Origin: a virus
Lineage: Duplodnaviria; Caudoviricetes
DNA: 64,000 nucleotides
IMG/VR virus record: IMGVR_UViG_3300032335_001233
Span: 1-64,000 of that record
Strand: one strand, 5' to 3'
Translations under genes and position numbers: made by a program
In this document: one piece after another, positions 5,547 to 44,221 of the stretch
Layout of the letters: the number at the start of each line of letters is the position of its first letter
Numbering within the stretch: position 1 is the first letter of the stretch
The notes under the pieces: generated by a model
Database searches by the model: none
Told to the model about the DNA's origin: nothing
Seen by the model: only the letters and a program-made list of their open reading frames with translations

Positions 5547-5575
5547 ATTATAGCAAATCGCGGAATTCTGGTCAA
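5547..5575 (-). promoter_or_regulatory. Early sigma70-type promoter
   Basis: TTGACC-17-TATAAT with extended TG. Confidence 0.85.
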
Positions 5576-6400: not shown

Positions 6401-7679
6401 GATTCAGCAATTCAGGGTAAATTTCCGCAAACTGCATGGTGCCCACAGTGTCCCATTGAGCACAATGTTGAAACAGTTGTTGCAATAACTGACTTTGATT
6501 CACCGGCGCTGGTTGACTCAGTAGACCCAACGACAACTGAGCTTGCTCTTTGACACTGTGTTCAACAGCATTGGGATCACTAGTGTTGTAGTCTCCATTA
6601 ATGTCAACATTGCTCAACCGTGCAACCAAGTCTTGATAAGGTACACGATACTGCTCACGCACTGATTGAGGCAGCACTCGAACCTGCATGAATTCTGGTC
6701 GCATGCATACGTTGGCCTTGATGATCAGGCGCTGTTCAAGAGCCCAGTTCAACAAAGTATGATAGCTGCCCATGGTCAAGGCCTGTGGTGCCGAGCGCAG
6801 TGTCACAGTATGCGACTCACCATTGGCCCAGGCCTGATAACGAGCAATGTTTTGCAACACTTGTTGAGTGTCTGAGCCCTGGCGCACATAGTCATTGTGT
6901 GCAGTAACAGATTCAATGCTGATTTCGGCACCCACGCCACGAAACTGGCTCAAGCGGCTCATGACATCATCCCGCCAACGAGTACCATTGGTCACAAAAC
7001 TAATTCTGATGTCGGTGCGTTTGTGCTGAATCAACCAGTCCAAGAGTTCGGCAAATCTTGGTGTGAGCACAGTTTCGCCGCCCATGAAGTGCAAGTTTTC
7101 AAGATTGGGCAATTCCAGCAAGTCCTCAAGAAATTGATTCCAAGTGGTGCGGTCTCGAGTCCAATCTTGTCCCACAAACTTCTTGCTGTCAGTGTTGCCC
7201 CAGATCACTTGTTGCTGTGCAATGCGACTGCTGGCACCAGCATGACACATCTTGCAAGTAAGGTTACAGAAGTTGCCAAGATCAATATGCAGATCCACCG
7301 GCGTCTGACTGGTCACAGGCGTGAACCTCTCACGATGTGGACTCTGCTGCCAGCTGTGATCAAAGGCCTGACGAGTAAAGATCACACTTTTGAGATTGGC
7401 CCGCAATCGACGGCTGATGCCACCGGCAGCTTCTTCTTGATAGCATTTGGTACAGGCCGACAGCGGAGAATCGCCTAGAATTTGTTCACGAAACTGTTGT
7501 ACTGGTTGGCTGCGAGTCCACTCCAGCAAACCCATGTCACGTATGTTGTAACCAGTGTCTGTGTCAGGATACAGTTTGTGTCGTTCCTGACAGCACACAC
7601 CCAGGCTGCCGTCCCAATATACATGGGCTTCAAACCAGGGGGTGTTGCAGAAGATATGTTGGTCAGGCACGTCGGTCAA
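6393..7679 (-). CDS. Radical SAM protein with N-terminal twitch/SPASM-like domain
   Basis: CNLTCKMC (CxxxCxxC), GGE, TNG; N-terminal C..PW, CC and CxxC. Confidence 0.9.
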
Positions 7680-8286
7680 TGATTTTGTCGGCTAAGCCCC
7701 ATTCCACTGCCTGCTCAGCACTCAAGAACGTGTCAAACTTCATGGTGTTGTAGAAGTCATCATAGGTCTTGCCAGCAGTGTTGTGACGCACATAAAGATC
7801 AGTCAGTCGCTGGTTGATGCGTTTGCTTTCTTCAAACATGCGTCGAGCATCTTCAAATTCCAACTCTTGCACATGAACTGATCCTGATGTGCCCGGGGTT
7901 CCCGAGCTTACTCTATGTATCATGGTACGACTTTCGGGCAAAACAAAACGCTTGCCAGCATGGCCGGCCTGTGCCAAAAATGATCCCATGCTGGCAGCTT
8001 GGCCTATCACAATGGTCTGCACATCACACTTGATGAACTGCATGGTGTCGTAAATGGCCAGTCCAGCAGTGACTGACCCGCCAGGCGAATTGATGTAAAG
8101 AGAAATGTCTTTGTCTGGGTTCTCGCTTTCCAAAAACAGCATTTGAGCCACAACAAGACTGGCCACATGCTGAGTGACCTCACCGTCCAGCATGATCACT
8201 CGATCTCGCAGCAATCGGCTGTAGATATCATAACTGCGCTCGCCACGACTGGTATGTTCGATCACAATGGGTACTAGATTAGACAT
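7663..8286 (-). CDS. clpP: ATP-dependent Clp protease proteolytic subunit
   Basis: [23 protein letters not shown] (Ser), MIH (His), DTFLSAEQA (Asp). Confidence 0.95.
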
Positions 8287-8337
8287 GGGGTCTCCTTGAT
8301 GAAAGCATAAGTATAGCATAACTTTTGGAAAAAACCA

Positions 8338-9924: not shown

Positions 9925-10509
9925 TTACTTTCTTGACACTTCGCTGATGTCATCGCACACGCCCAGGGCCAGGGCTTCTTCGGCGCTGAGCCACACATCA
10001 TGCGGTGGCAATAAATTTGCACGTATTTCGTCTGCGGATAGTCCAGTGCACTCTTCGTAAAGTCGCACCATGCGCTTGTGTGTGAGTTCAAATTCTTTCA
10101 TGGTGGCAAACAGTTCATGTGCTTTGCCATCTGAACCCCAAGAAAATTGATGACTAAGAATTGATGTGTTGGGTGTGAGCACTCGACGACCAGCACTGCC
10201 GGCCAAAAATATCATGAGTCCAGCCGAAGCAATGGTGCCTAGGCCCACAGTCTTGATGGGAATGCCACTGCTACGCATGACATCAATCAAAGCAAAGGCC
10301 GCGGCAACATCACCACCTTCACTACAGATCATGAGCAAGAGTTCTTTGCGACGTTTTTTGCTTACAAAATTTTCATGTAAAATCCACTCCACAATGGGTC
10401 GTATTGAGTCATGGTCTACATCGCCCATGAACACATACATGCCGGCATCTTGTAGAGCTTGAGTGTGAGATTTCTCGAGGGTTTCGTTTTCGTTGGCCAT
10501 GAGTCGCAT
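9925..10509 (-). CDS. clpP: Second, divergent ClpP-family protease
   Basis: ICSEGG, IASAG (Ser), LSHQ (His), DVWLSAEEA (Asp). Confidence 0.85.
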   Translation of the reverse strand: MRLMANENETLEKSHTQALQDAGMYVFMGDVDHDSIRPIVEWILHENFVSKKRRKELLLMICSEGGDVAAAFALIDVMRSSGIPIKTVGLGTIASAGLMIFLAGSAGRRVLTPNTSILSHQFSWGSDGKAHELFATMKEFELTHKRMVRLYEECTGLSADEIRANLLPPHDVWLSAEEALALGVCDDISEVSRK

Positions 10510-12406: not shown

Positions 12407-12663
12407 TGATTGCCCCACTTCATGGCAAAGGCTGTGGCATCTGCTGGATCTTCAAATGCAAACTCGCCCAAGAAGAAACTGCTGACCCAGTAGCCTCGAC
12501 AGGCTGTTTCGGCCCAGATGTTGAGTCCCATCCAGCTCAGTCGTACTTCGCCACGCTTGAATCCGGCCTGACCACTGCGAACCACTGTCCAACCTCGCTT
12601 GCGAGCACCACGCACTGAGCGTGGATTGCTGGCTCGGTAGGGTAGGTGTAAACAGCGACTCAT
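12403..12663 (-). CDS. Hypothetical protein
   Basis: C-terminal FEDPADATAFAMKW motif typical of small proteins of large phages. Confidence 0.65.
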   Translation of the reverse strand: MSRCLHLPYRASNPRSVRGARKRGWTVVRSGQAGFKRGEVRLSWMGLNIWAETACRGYWVSSFFLGEFAFEDPADATAFAMKWGNQ

Positions 12664-12878
12664 AGTGTTTTGAGCATGTCAAATCGAACCATTGTTTTGG
12701 CTTCGTCTTGGTCAATATACTCCAAGGCCTCTTTCAGTGTGCGACCAGTGGTGCCCACATACTGCACACCGTCCCGCCAGTGAGCATACAGGCTGACGCC
12801 TTCTCGCCGGCCTTGGTAGTAAGCACGACTTTGGGCCAGTTGCAGATACTGATCTTGTTCAGGAGTGAAGGTTATCAT
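12660..12878 (-). CDS. Hypothetical protein
   Basis: YAHWRDGVQYVGTTGRTLKEA; start trimmed to MITF. Confidence 0.65.
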   Translation of the reverse strand: MITFTPEQDQYLQLAQSRAYYQGRREGVSLYAHWRDGVQYVGTTGRTLKEALEYIDQDEAKTMVRFDMLKTL

Positions 12879-13017
12879 CACGACCTCGATGTTTGGGTTT
12901 GCGACAGTAGTCGGTCTTGGGCCGTTCCACACGACCGCGGAACGGTAAGTCTCGATCAAACAAGGCTCGATGACGACGCTCTTTTACTGGCGGTAGTGTG
13001 AAATGTATGGGCTTCAT
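12859..13017 (-). CDS. ArfA-like alternative ribosome-rescue factor (52 aa, leaderless)
   Basis: MKPIHFTLPPVKERRHRALFDRDLPFRGRVERPKTDYCRKPKHRGRDDNLHS; FRxRVE..K..YxRKxKH as in ArfA; has its own promoter. Confidence 0.65.
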   Translation of the reverse strand: MKPIHFTLPPVKERRHRALFDRDLPFRGRVERPKTDYCRKPKHRGRDDNLHS

Positions 13018-13026
13018 AATAGTGTA

Positions 13027-13055
13027 ATTATACATGCCCGTGAATTATTGGTCAA
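13027..13055 (-). promoter_or_regulatory. Early sigma70-type promoter
   Basis: TTGACC-17-TATAAT. Confidence 0.85.
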
Positions 13056-13060
13056 CCATG

Positions 13061-13086
13061 AAAAACCCGCCAAAACAGCGGGTTTT
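13061..13086. terminator. Intrinsic terminator
   Basis: AAAACCCGC-N7-GCGGGTTTT after the phasin-like gene. Confidence 0.75.
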
Positions 13087-13106: not shown

Positions 13107-13382
13107 TTATTTTTTGGCTGTGGTGGTTTGGTAGGCTTTCATGACGCCTTCACCAAATTTGGCATAGTCAAATTTCATGGCTTCTTGAGTGGCCTTGACT
13201 GCTTCTTGAGTCAGTGTGGTCATGGTGTCCATGCCAACTCGTGCGGCCTTTTTGGTGTATTCGGCTTGAGCATCCACGAACTGGATCAAGCTGTCTTTGA
13301 CCACAGCATTTTGAACAAAGGTATTGACCATGGTCTTTTTGCCGGTTTGAATGGCATCTACTACTGCATCGATTGTAAACAT
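13107..13382 (-). CDS. Phasin-like amphipathic helical protein
   Basis: Ala/Thr/Gln-rich helical 91-aa protein; AAGGAG SD. Confidence 0.55.
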   Translation of the reverse strand: MFTIDAVVDAIQTGKKTMVNTFVQNAVVKDSLIQFVDAQAEYTKKAARVGMDTMTTLTQEAVKATQEAMKFDYAKFGEGVMKAYQTTTAKK

Positions 13383-13460
13383 GTGTATCTCCTTAAAAGC
13401 GAGTTTACTGCAACAAGGCCCGCCCCATGCGGCACCTTGTGTGTATTGTAGCATTATTTA

Positions 13461-15227: not shown

Positions 15228-15256
15228 ATTATACACTGTTTGTGATATAAAGTCAA
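15228..15256 (-). promoter_or_regulatory. sigma70-type promoter (leaderless uvsE)
   Basis: TTGACT-17-TATAAT with the ATG 6 nt downstream. Confidence 0.8.
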
Positions 15257-21817: not shown

Positions 21818-22609
21818 ATGCAATTTGCTTTTGACCTAATTTCTGATCTACATGTTGAGACCTGGAGCGAACCCTTGGATTTCAAAGGTAGAGCCACAGC
21901 GCCAGTGGCTGTAGTGGCTGGTGATATCAGTGAAGACCGCGACACTGTGATTGAGACTTTGAAAAATCTTGGTGCCAGCTATCAAGCTGTGTTTTACATT
22001 GACGGCAATGATGAACACCGAGAATACTTGGAAAACTTGTCGGCTGGATATCGCAGTCTTGTGCGCCAAGTAAAAAACATCAACAACGTAGTTTATTTAC
22101 AAGACAATGTGATTGTAATTGACGGTGTAGCTATCTTGGGCACCAATGGTTGGTGGGGGTTTGATTTTGATCTCACTGTGAATGTAGAACAGAGCATGCA
22201 TTGGTATCGTGAAAAAAGATCACTTACCCCAGCAGCCGTACAAGGCATACGCAAGATGAGTGCACAAGACGCCACCTACATGGTACAGAGTGTGAAAAAA
22301 CTTCAAACTCACGGCGATGTCAAACAAATTGTCATGGTCACTCACACTGTGCCCGATCCTGCTATTATTGCACACGACATTGAGCTAGATGGCACACACC
22401 GATTCAACTGCATGGGCAATCGCTACATGATGCAGGCGTTGGCTGCTGACACAGAACGAAAAATACATACCTGGTGCTTTGGTCACTATCATGGCAGCAT
22501 TGACCAGGTGCGCAGTGGTGTGAGATTTGTCAACAACTGTCGCGGTCGAGGTGACAGTGCCTGGGGCAATTGTGTGTATCACCCCAAGCGCATTGTGATT
22601 GAATATTAA
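21818..22609 (+). CDS. Calcineurin-like metallophosphoesterase
   Basis: SDLH, GD, GNDEH, THTVP, GHYH. Confidence 0.85.
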   Translation: MQFAFDLISDLHVETWSEPLDFKGRATAPVAVVAGDISEDRDTVIETLKNLGASYQAVFYIDGNDEHREYLENLSAGYRSLVRQVKNINNVVYLQDNVIVIDGVAILGTNGWWGFDFDLTVNVEQSMHWYREKRSLTPAAVQGIRKMSAQDATYMVQSVKKLQTHGDVKQIVMVTHTVPDPAIIAHDIELDGTHRFNCMGNRYMMQALAADTERKIHTWCFGHYHGSIDQVRSGVRFVNNCRGRGDSAWGNCVYHPKRIVIEY

Positions 22610-22917
22610 ACTTCGGCTGCAGGTTCCAGCTTGATCTGCAAAGGATAACTCTGTGCGCGAGCCTGTGTGGTAACTTCTACACCTTTTTGCTCAGCAATTT
22701 CATAAGGCAACACAGCCACCACAGCTGATCCTGAATCATGAATGTCATGAGTAATCAGTGCCGCTGTTTCCACATTGTATTCAAAATGCTCAATCAGGCT
22801 CTCAACCACAAACTCCATGGTGGTTTGATTGTCATTGAGGTACACCACTTTGAACAGTGGGGGTTCTTTGATGGCCAAATTGGGTTTGATTCTTGTGTTG
22901 GTTTCAGTTTGTGGCAT
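22606..22917 (-). CDS. clpS: ClpS N-degron adaptor
   Basis: PPLFKVVYLNDNQTTMEFV...H..G.AVV...EIAEQK...PL..KLE. Confidence 0.9.
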   Translation of the reverse strand: MPQTETNTRIKPNLAIKEPPLFKVVYLNDNQTTMEFVVESLIEHFEYNVETAALITHDIHDSGSAVVAVLPYEIAEQKGVEVTTQARAQSYPLQIKLEPAAEV

Positions 22918-22972: not shown

Positions 22973-23425
22973 TTAAGAAGCGTAGGTGATAGCAATGGTC
23001 TTTGGCTTAGCGTCTTCGGGAACTTCTCGCTTTAGGCGTATGTTCAAGATACCCAGTTCAAGATTTGCATTGCTGATCTCCACATGGTCAGCTAGTTGAA
23101 ATTCTCGACGGAAGTTTCGTTCGCTGATGCCCTTGTGTAGATAGTTCACTTCTTGAGTGTCTTCTGTGTCAGCAGTGTGTCTGCCTTCAATGATCAAGAC
23201 TTTTTTGTCCTTGGTCACTGACAGATCTTCCAGTGCAAAACCTGCCACAGCCACACTGATAACATATTCGTCTTCGTTGACCTGGACGATGTTATAGGGA
23301 GGGTAGTTGGTGTTGCTTTGCTGCGCACTCACACGCATGAGTTCGTCAAACATGTTATCGAAACCGATACCAAATCTGTGAATTGCGGGAATGTCAAGGG
23401 TACGAAGGGATAAAGTTTTTGTCAT
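22973..23425 (-). CDS. Small heat-shock protein Hsp20 (IbpA-like)
   Basis: IGFD, YPPYNI, AVAGF, YLHKGIS.R.F, A.L..GIL.I. Confidence 0.95.
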   Translation of the reverse strand: MTKTLSLRTLDIPAIHRFGIGFDNMFDELMRVSAQQSNTNYPPYNIVQVNEDEYVISVAVAGFALEDLSVTKDKKVLIIEGRHTADTEDTQEVNYLHKGISERNFRREFQLADHVEISNANLELGILNIRLKREVPEDAKPKTIAITYAS

Positions 23426-23517: not shown

Positions 23518-23742
23518 TCAATACAGTTTGGGCGGTAACTGCTGATCTCGCAGTTTTTTCTGCCAACGTTTGCGAGCCGCCGAAGCCTTGAGCTTGCGTT
23601 CAGTAGTGGGCTTGACATAATGCTCACGCTGTCGCAGATCTTCCAGCACCCCGGCTGCTTGAATTTTTTTCTTGAGTTTGCGCAGAGCTCGATCCACGTG
23701 GTTATCTTGAACCAAGACTGATCGTCCAGTGAGTTTATGCAT
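23518..23742 (-). CDS. rpsU: 30S ribosomal protein bS21
   Basis: V.V....DRALRKLKKK...G...LR.REHYVKPT..RK...AARKR. Confidence 0.9.
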   Translation of the reverse strand: MHKLTGRSVLVQDNHVDRALRKLKKKIQAAGVLEDLRQREHYVKPTTERKLKASAARKRWQKKLRDQQLPPKLY

Positions 23743-24940
23743 GATGTTCTGTGAGTGATTGAGGATTGTGCACTTGGTCACCATTGATCATCACTGTTGA
23801 GATGCCTTGGTTGCGATAGCGCACAAGATTGAACATGTGTGGTAGCAGCACACGTTCTAGCTCGCTGTGTAGTCCACGAGCACCAGTACGGTTGGCAATG
23901 GTACGTTCAGCAATGAGGTCCAAGCTGCCAGAATCAAAAGTAAGATCAATTTGATCTTGCTGAAACAACCACTGGTATTGGCTCACATAACTGTGCTTGA
24001 CTTCGGTCAAGATTCGCACAAGATCAGTTTTGCCAAGCTCTTGTAATGCTACCCAGGTAGGGAAACGTCCCACAAATTCAGGTATCATGCCAAACTTGAT
24101 GAGGTCCTCAGGAGTGACCAAGTCCAAAGACGTTGCTGTGTCTTTGACCACGTTGGCACCAAAACCAATTGATGTGCCTTTGACACGATTTTTCACAATG
24201 TTGTCAAGCCCCACAAATGCACCACCGGCGATAAACAAGATGTTGGTGGTGTCAATTTCTATGTTTTCACCAGCCGGATGCTTGCGATTGCCAGTGGGCT
24301 GAACTCGACAACGAGTACCTTCAACTAACTTGAGCAGAGCCTGTTGTACTCCTTCGCCTGACACATCTCGTGTGATTGAGGCACTCTCACTGCGGCGGCT
24401 GATCTTGTCAATTTCGTCAATAAACACAATACCACGTTGTGTTTTTTCTATGTCGCCACCGGCAGCGTTGTACAGTCTTGAAATCAAACTTTCTACATCA
24501 TCTCCCACGTAGCCAGCTTCGGTCAGGCTTGTGGCATCAGCTATCACAAACGGTACATCAAGATATCGTGCCACACTGCGAGCCAGCAGTGTTTTGCCCG
24601 AGCCTGTGGGCCCCAGCATGAGAATGTTGCTTTTCTCAATCTCTACTGCGGGGTCAGGATTGTTGATACGCTTGTAGTGATTCACAATGGCCACACTCAG
24701 CACTTGTTTGGCTCGATGTTGCCCCACCACATACTGGTCCAGGTGCTGTTTGATGGTGTGCGGATCTAGTGTGGCCTTGATTGTACCATCAGTCTTGACT
24801 GGCACATCGTCTTTAAGCAAGTCACCGCATAGGCTCACACACTCGTTGCAAATGGCCACTGTGTCGCCCACAATCAGTTTGGCCACAGCATCTTTGTGTT
24901 TGCCACAAAAACTACAGGTGTCTAGTGTGTCGTTTTTCAT
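23735..24940 (-). CDS. clpX: ATP-dependent Clp protease ATP-binding subunit ClpX
   Basis: CSFC/CNEC Zn finger, [28 protein letters not shown] loop, GARGL. Confidence 0.97.
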
Positions 24941-31744: not shown

Positions 31745-31805
31745 TTGGCTCCTTTTAGTTACTATACAAGTATTATAGCAAATTGGGAAATATTGGTCAA
31801 CCAAA
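31745..31805 (-). repeat. 61-bp direct repeat, copy 1 (promoter + leader + SD)
   Basis: Identical to 32053-32113; contains TTGACC-17-TATAAT and AAGGAGCCAA. Confidence 0.95.
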
Positions 31806-31819
31806 ATAGTGTTGCGTTT

Positions 31820-32050
31820 TTACAACAATCCTACGCTTTTCTTGATCTCATAGCGAGCGATCTTTTCGTCAAAGTACATGTGAACGCCTTCCATGTAAGG
31901 ACTTGCTACAACAATTTCGCCTAGCTCGATAGCAAGATCCTGAGTGAAACGAGTGAGAATGCTGTGAGTGTCTTCTGACTGATTTAGTGGGTCCCGGTCC
32001 AGAATTTCTTGGTAGTTGTTGATGAGTTTTTGTATGTTTTGATGAATCAT
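31820..32050 (-). CDS. Hypothetical early protein
   Basis: Lies between the two repeats; SD AAGGAGCCAAAAATG. Confidence 0.75.
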   Translation of the reverse strand: MIHQNIQKLINNYQEILDRDPLNQSEDTHSILTRFTQDLAIELGEIVVASPYMEGVHMYFDEKIARYEIKKSVGLL

Positions 32051-32052
32051 TT

Positions 32053-32113
32053 TTGGCTCCTTTTAGTTACTATACAAGTATTATAGCAAATTGGGAAATA
32101 TTGGTCAACCAAA
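32053..32113 (-). repeat. 61-bp direct repeat, copy 2
   Basis: Identical to 31745-31805. Confidence 0.95.
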
Positions 32114-44192: not shown

Positions 44193-44221
44193 ATTATAGC
44201 AAAACTACAGCCCAGTGTCAA
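44193..44221 (-). promoter_or_regulatory. Consensus sigma70 promoter of iscU-iscA
   Basis: TTGACA-17-TATAAT with extended TG. Confidence 0.9.

Follow-up and report, generated by a model that had tools for sequence, protein, structure and literature searches.

Whether a large phage may carry its own factor for the rescue of stalled ribosomes, and in which form such a factor would be produced, is the question raised by a short basic open reading frame found in the window studied here, i.e., the first 64 kb of a 115,489-bp IMG/VR virus record with completeness of 33% (CheckV). An earlier note on this DNA had taken the frame for an unannotated relative of the E. coli rescue factor ArfA transcribed from its own early promoter. 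The source phage probably has a genome of approximately 350 kb, since relatives of the small gene are carried by viral contigs 252-364 kb in length and by metagenome contigs reaching 356 kb. Large ORFs of the record match phage ribonucleotide reductase, DNA ligase, DnaB-type helicase, and other helicases. The minus strand of the window encodes ribosomal protein bS21 (23518-23784; PF01165, 66.6 bits) overlapping with the gene of zinc finger-containing ClpX (23735-24940), Hsp20 (22973-23425), ClpS (22606-22917), and two copies of ClpP (7663-8319 and 9925-10509), thus describing a phage with several translation and proteostasis genes. No tRNA, tmRNA, RF-1-domain, SmpB, IF1, or Pth gene was found in the 115-kb record, which has little meaning since only about 33% of the genome is represented there.

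A conserved small gene and its relatives

The coding sequence of 52 codons occupies positions 12859..13017 of the minus strand (stop included), starting from ATG at 13017 and ending with TGA at 12861-12859, precisely where the earlier note had drawn it. Its product (MKPIHFTLPPVKERRHRALFDRDLPFRGRVERPKTDYCRKPKHRGRDDNLHS; MKPIHF...DDNLHS) has pI of 10.9 and 15 lysine and arginine residues in total; residues 14-31 (RRHRALFDRDLPFRGRVE) align to the RF2-binding mid-region of ArfA and are followed by a basic tail covering residues 32-47 (RPKTDYCRKPKHRGRD). Word-seeded protein search returned 70 close homologues of 49-82 aa with identity of 57-90%, while HMM search of 1.84 billion proteins with a 40-sequence profile gave 162 representative clusters at E ≤ 1e-3 (representatives taken at the 50% identity level), nearly all of them 43-60 aa long and ending 5-10 residues past the K-H motif. 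Among 16 close relatives the ArfA-like frame is the sole one open in all sequences, and mean pairwise differences at the first, second, and third codon positions amount to 9.4, 8.8, and 23.2, respectively. Such an excess at third positions is a signature of purifying selection; both the homologues and this codon-position pattern support the proposed gene, and the segment 12859-13017 is a real gene, conserved and maintained by purifying selection. Invariant positions in the 40-sequence alignment of the close family are R14, H16, L19, L24, P25, F26, R27, R29, E31, K34, Y37, R39, K42, and H43, with A18 being present in at least 90% of sequences.

The alternative 58-aa reading from the in-frame ATG at 13035 was rejected, as this start lies inside the -10 box of the promoter described below and the extension is not conserved as protein; the "CYNY-x-IM" extensions of many database ORFs likewise represent the TGnTATAAT promoter read in frame. 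The AlphaFold2 model of the peptide monomer (pLDDT 82, pTM 0.26) takes the form of an elongated chain in which residues 17-20 and 44-50 make up short helices. Its Foldseek comparison with the PDB returned nothing, which is not surprising for a peptide of this shape, and the model says little about function.

With respect to distribution, scanning of 2.9 million viral contigs with the motifs of two subclades yielded 48 and 18 confirmed loci (66 in total), and the same two motifs gave no confirmed locus in the genomes of 185,579 species of bacteria and archaea. Thus, within the limits of the two subclade motifs tested, the family is restricted to viruses.

Relationship to ArfA and to known phage proteins

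The HMM search against the ArfA family, which the earlier note had suggested as a check, naming the lack of a profile match among the refutations of its idea, turned out to be negative: the window protein does not match Pfam PF03889 at E ≤ 10, nor does this model match in a six-frame search of the record, and scans with Pfam and NCBIfam assigned the protein to no curated family. Matches to PF03889 (gathering score 25.5 bits) are rare and weak among the relatives as well, being limited to one of the 40 close (E of 0.13) and one of the 102 wider family members (E of 3.7e-4). The ArfA-like identity failed in this respect but held in comparisons based on the family profile. Among 177,635 distinct PDB sequences it picked out six, each a chain of E. 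coli ArfA in a ribosome-rescue structure (best E of 6e-4), and hhalign comparison of the 40-sequence family with a canonical ArfA alignment, composed of enterobacterial ArfA and ArfA of Pseudoalteromonas phage J2-1, gave a probability of 95.4% with E of 1.8e-8 over ArfA residues 12-54, reproducing the alignment to the E. coli protein initially made by eye. For the broad 102-sequence profile the probability was 94.3%. The J2-1 protein itself passes PF03889 at 41.3 bits and shares 44% identity over 39 aa with the window protein (BLASTP), so that, judging from these scores, it is a bridging sequence between the window family and PF03889-type ArfA.

Outside the PDB-limited search, no sequence ties the family to canonical ArfA at database-wide significance (1.84 billion proteins). 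Among 50,697 phage records, tblastn with the peptide revealed only a marginal match to J2-1 ArfA (E = 2), and nothing was found in the phage collection by blastn with the 5-kb region or by tblastn with the wider-family member P0110; the word-based homologue search started from J2-1 ArfA returned only J2-1 ArfA. Neighbors of the window protein in the ESM Atlas include DUF7230 and ArfA clusters, which we consider as a lead only, and many family members are named "stalled ribosome alternative rescue factor ArfA" by the JGI/IMG pipeline, so that the gene can be called unannotated only in part. Taken together, these comparisons support homology of the window protein to ArfA, in a divergent form.

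What the protein keeps from ArfA can be judged against the cryo-EM structure of the E. coli factor, in which L19, L24, and F25 form a hydrophobic patch binding Trp319 of the RF2 switch loop, residues His21-Glu30 lie in the A site, basic residues 31-48 fill the mRNA tunnel, and A18 belongs to the core, its replacement by threonine abolishing peptide release and leaving RF2 binding intact (Demo et al., PMC5378476). By alignment, the RF2-contacting residues are retained in the window family (L19, L24, and F26 invariant, A18 in at least 90% of 40 sequences), although position 18 is often occupied by V rather than A in the wider family. The preserved elements comprise A18-L19, L24-P25-F26, R-x-R-V-E, and K-x-x-Y-x-R-K-x-K-H, with K34, Y37, R39, K42, and H43 of the basic tail invariant and aligned to the ArfA tail; 10 of the 21 residues at positions 27-47 are K, R, or H. 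The KGKGS loop is absent from the family, and a 3-residue gap stands at its place in both PDB-profile and hhalign alignments. The same loop is missing from the PF03889-positive ArfA of phage J2-1, where F and H are 17 residues apart, just as in the family. These alignments, together with the window protein itself, which has no hydrophobic C-terminus, bear out two further particulars of the initial description, that is, the missing KGKGS stretch and the missing hydrophobic tail.

The N-terminal part is different. Residues H6, G9, D13, and N14 (E. coli numbering), which are invariant in the canonical ArfA alignment including J2-1, are replaced by MKPIxFTLPPVKERRHR, and the hhalign match between the family and ArfA starts only at ArfA residue 12. 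In the canonical factor, this N-terminal minidomain becomes ordered on the ribosome in a manner coupled to RF2 activation (PMC5378476).

The 3′ end of the gene also differs from its bacterial counterpart. In E. coli, a hairpin in arfA gives rise, through cutting by RNase III, to non-stop mRNA, and hence ArfA is repressed by tmRNA (PMC3989581). No hairpin of the RNase III or terminator type was found in the 3′ region of the phage gene (fold z of +0.25 versus shuffles, as compared to -4.2 for the long hairpin of E. coli arfA taken as control); in every family ORF the stop lies 5-10 codons beyond the KH motif, and residue 52 of the window protein aligns in hhalign to ArfA residue 54, which corresponds to the length of active truncated ArfA. 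Since the frame is closed by its own stop near ArfA residue 54 and is devoid of the hairpin, the protein appears to be natively short and should escape repression by trans-translation; its earlier characterization as constitutively short thereby agrees with the data.

In general outline, E. coli ArfA (YhdL, PF03889; 5MDV, 5U4I, 5H5U, and 5MGP) and the window protein are both small basic peptides sharing the aligned A18-L19, the L/P/F patch, the R-x-R-V-E strand, and the Y-x-R-K-x-K-H tail. Unlike the E. coli protein, that of the window has no match to PF03889, differs in its 13 N-terminal residues, and carries a tail that lacks KGKGS and is 3 residues shorter, while its gene, in contrast to E. 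coli arfA, is phage-borne, possesses a real stop, is free of the RNase III hairpin and of the segment for the hydrophobic C-terminus, and has a predicted near-leaderless transcript.

ArfA has already been annotated in phages J2-1 (ATN93434) and Brevundimonas phage Bambus, as well as in Citromicrobium phage RXM (g10; PMC8953757), and pelagiphage HTVC027P encodes gp30, an ArfA with PF03889 domain whose transcript is high both early and late in infection (PMC12753301). Using tblastn with E. coli ArfA, short stop-terminated ORFs of the KGKGS ArfA type were additionally revealed in Ralstonia phage RsoM2USA (MG752970, ~111850-111996, where the only annotated CDS is on the opposite strand), Pseudomonas phage pf16 (KU873925, ~131796-131912, unannotated), and Salmonella phage Arash (gp99c, named "ribosomal protein L2"). 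Short ArfA of cultured phages (J2-1, RXM, HTVC027P, Bambus, Arash, pf16, and RsoM2USA) has 39-51 aa and stops soon after the basic tail, as in the window. J2-1 ArfA and the window protein also have in common the lack of KGKGS and the ...FRxRVERxKTxYRRKxKH... segment, whereas J2-1, Arash, and pf16 keep the N-terminus of the H-x-x-G-x-x-K-D-N type in place of MKPIxFTLPPVKERRHR characteristic of the window clade. Of the five proteins translated, those of Arash, pf16, RsoM2USA, and Bambus retain the KGKGS loop absent in the window, J2-1 being the exception, and arfA genes of pf16, Arash, and Bambus (three upstream regions read) have a Shine-Dalgarno leader, in contrast to the promoter abutting ATG in the window clade. 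Short phage ArfA genes are thus of a kind already known, and the window clade is a divergent, natively short, virus-borne variant of it. Literature searches found no functional study, either biochemical or genetic, of any phage ArfA and no paper on DUF7230.

The latter family (PF23876, gathering score 27 bits) is one of three overlapping groups listed as function unknown. It is matched at E ≤ 0.01 by 31 of the 102 wider-family members (~30%), and PHROGs 6310 and 2701 are each matched by 15 of the 102 at E ≤ 0.001. The window protein matches phrog_6310 at E of 6.7e-5 and gives no match to DUF7230, for which its close relatives P0001, P0013, and P0065 score 16.4-18.3 bits against the cut-off of 27. 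ArfA of phage J2-1 (L001, 2965-3120) passes both PF03889 (41.3 bits) and DUF7230 (28.6 bits), so that DUF7230 overlaps with ArfA, which suggests that it is an ArfA-related family. A similar mode of action is known for ArfT of Francisella and BrfA of Bacillus subtilis, small basic proteins entering the empty mRNA channel and recruiting class-I release factor to non-stop ribosomes (PMC6299226, PMC6881298); alike in action, they are described as factors distinct from ArfA, and ArfT can employ either RF1 or RF2.

Promoter abutting the start codon and the genomic neighborhood

The gene follows a phasin-like gene on the same minus strand (13107-13454; 115 aa; weak sub-threshold Phasin_2 match, 16.6 bits). 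At 19 of 33 related loci this neighbor is conserved as well. In the window, the two genes are separated by a terminator-like hairpin at 13063..13086 on the minus strand, combining an A-tract, GC stem, and U-tract and closing the phasin-like gene. Its 10-bp stem has a predicted energy of -14.6 kcal/mol (z of -3.06), and none of 200 shuffled sequences was equally stable; the hairpin escaped the consensus terminator scan. Comparable hairpins are located 5′ of the promoter at six related viral loci (L007, L008, L010, L015, L018, and L044). Since the hairpin ends the upstream unit, the ArfA-like gene appears to open a new transcription unit. Next in this unit is a 72-aa gene (12660..12878, minus strand) of no known family, whose GAGG (12887-12884) and ATG are embedded in the 3′ end of the ArfA-like ORF with an overlap of 20 nt. 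Obligate pairing of the two genes was considered and rejected, as downstream conservation is observed in only 5 of 33 related loci. In the lineage of the window, the conserved block includes the phasin-like gene, the ArfA-like gene, small lipoproteins, and ClpP.

Between the hairpin and the start codon lies a σ70-type promoter (13027..13055, minus strand) with -35 element TTGACC (13055-13050), 17-nt spacer, and -10 element TATAAT (13032-13027), which coincides with consensus at 11 of 12 positions in the promoter scan; 3 promoter-like sites are present in the region as compared to 1.2 ± 1.0 in shuffles. The interval from the end of the -10 box to ATG is exactly 9 nt (TACACTATT), as had been noticed on first inspection of the sequence together with the proposal of an own promoter, and no Shine-Dalgarno sequence is present within these 9 nt. 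Transcription likely starts at A 13020, positioned 7 nt past the -10 box, so that the predicted leader has 0-3 nt (13018..13020, minus strand) and the transcript begins as 5′-AUUAUG.

This arrangement is not peculiar to the window. A promoter matching consensus at no fewer than 10 of 12 positions and having its -10 end 6-9 nt from ATG was found in 22 of 34 non-redundant viral loci, whereas the same layout occurs at only 10 of 862 other ORF starts of these loci. Among the 22 promoter-bearing loci, 17 have a spacing of exactly 9 nt and 17 possess the TGn extended -10 element; the same spacing recurs in the second, more distant subclade. Such proximity of the -10 box to ATG implies near-leaderless mRNA. 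All 18 loci in which the spacing is 9 nt have a purine 7 nt past the -10 box (A in 17 and G in one; L044, read from its true ATG, is included), which points to a transcript beginning with 5′-AYYAUG and a leader of about 3 nt. Thus, the ArfA-like protein is probably translated from near-leaderless mRNA (5′-AUUAUG in the window), and given the host-type promoter we infer early expression of its gene. The conserved promoter abutting ATG is the new element of the present analysis.

In the 115-kb record, promoters of the TTGACC-N17-TATAAT type number 17, of which 16 are on the minus strand, and they often share a conserved spacer (CAATAWTTCCCAATTTGC); further examples in the window are located at 15228-15256, 5547-5575, 44193-44221, and 31772-32108. 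About 5 of the 17 end 6-10 nt ahead of a start codon, including that of a UvdE-like endonuclease gene. The phage therefore seems to use near-leaderless units more widely, and several of its genes may be expressed in this way.

Possible mode of action

Based on the retained structural elements, we favor, with moderate confidence, the interpretation that the 52-aa gene is a phage homologue of ArfA produced directly in the short active form, which would rescue non-stop ribosomes via RF2 independently of tmRNA. In this scheme, the basic tail (residues ~32-47 with K-x-x-Y-x-R-K-x-K-H) would enter the empty mRNA channel of the 70S ribosome stalled at the 3′ end of truncated mRNA, while the mid-region (A18, L19, L24-P25-F26, and R-x-R-V-E) would be accommodated in the A site and recruit RF2 of the host, which would then hydrolyze peptidyl-tRNA without a stop codon and set the ribosome free. 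Having its own stop and neither hairpin nor hydrophobic degron, the peptide would be maintained at a level independent of host trans-translation, and its gene, which heads the unit behind a host-type promoter close to consensus, would be expressed from near-leaderless mRNA. The phage would likely benefit by regaining for its own translation, without SsrA tagging, ribosomes that had become stuck on degraded host mRNAs or on cleaved ones. We infer ribosome binding, RF2 recruitment, the timing of expression, and this benefit.

A further-reaching version of the same idea, which we regard as doubtful, presents the family as a virus-only offshoot of ArfA re-engineered for host takeover, combining near-leaderless mRNA suited for direct 70S initiation and the absence of tmRNA control with new functions. 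The new N-terminal segment might then permit the use of RF1 besides RF2 or action on ribosomes stalled by defence RNases; it might also help to out-compete tmRNA-SmpB, so that the products escape SsrA tagging and ClpXP. Under such a scenario, the conservation of 9 nt from the -10 box to AUG would be a matter of design rather than an accident of an early-gene cassette.

The replaced N-terminal minidomain, which in ArfA is coupled to RF2 activation, can also be read in the opposite sense, namely that the protein is an ArfA-derived inhibitor occupying the mRNA channel and the A site and either out-competing tmRNA-SmpB, which would prevent SsrA tagging of products, or holding RF2 inactive in the manner of the E. 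coli A18T mutant, with the outcome that ribosome rescue in the host is reshaped or shut down. Valine at position 18 in many wider-family members would suit this proposal, as would the behavior of A18T ArfA, which binds RF2 without peptide release (PMC5378476), and the uncoupling of expression from tmRNA control. We nevertheless consider inhibition unlikely, because the most conserved block includes, beyond the basic tail, the RF2-contacting L-x(4)-L-P-F-R-x-R-V-E, superfluous for a simple plug, at least 90% of the window's own subfamily retain A18, and trapped ribosomes would cost the phage its own translation capacity.

The same rescue chemistry might alternatively serve counter-defence by restoring translation after abortive-infection RNases (mRNA interferases, anticodon nucleases, or CRISPR-associated RNases) have generated non-stop ribosomes, a role compatible with direct rescue by a short ArfA homologue as proposed above. 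The occurrence of 48 + 18 viral loci against none confirmed in ~185,000 species genomes in the two motif scans and the strong host-type promoter heading the transcription unit are in line with such a function, but the ArfA-like gene has the phasin-like gene, small lipoproteins, and ClpP for neighbors and shows linkage to neither defence nor anti-defence genes, and cleaved tRNA is not repairable by ArfA; as a specific purpose it therefore appears quite improbable. That the product is merely a basic nucleic acid-binding peptide (a ribosome, RNA, or DNA chaperone) with compositional or convergent likeness to ArfA, as its shortness, high basicity (pI 10.9), curated-model matches lying all below threshold, and overlap with PHROG 6310, PHROG 2701, and DUF7230 of unknown function might suggest, is very improbable, since about 40 ordered columns match ArfA, non-basic A, L, L, F, V, E, and Y among them, ArfA chains are the only PDB matches, and the intermediate J2-1 ArfA passes the ArfA model.

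If direct rescue by the natively short ArfA homologue is indeed active, large phages would bring along their own ribosome-rescue factor stripped of host feedback control, and the ArfA-like gene would take its place beside phage bS21 and Clp genes among the means of managing host translation. The clade may be considered a natural minimal ArfA of ~45-52 aa with a different N-terminus, and its comparison with E. coli ArfA could reveal the contacts truly required for activating RF2 when no stop codon is present. The clade further offers a clue to the function of Pfam DUF7230 and of two uncharacterized PHROGs; its practical value is modest, as the idea of phage ArfA is already present in annotations.

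Two members of the family deserve separate mention. The relative P0164 (58 aa) has a hydrophobic end, ...LLFLFIFFAST, resembling that of bacterial ArfA, and P0350 is a 404-aa protein clustering with 52-aa proteins, which could be a fusion or a read-through of gene calling.
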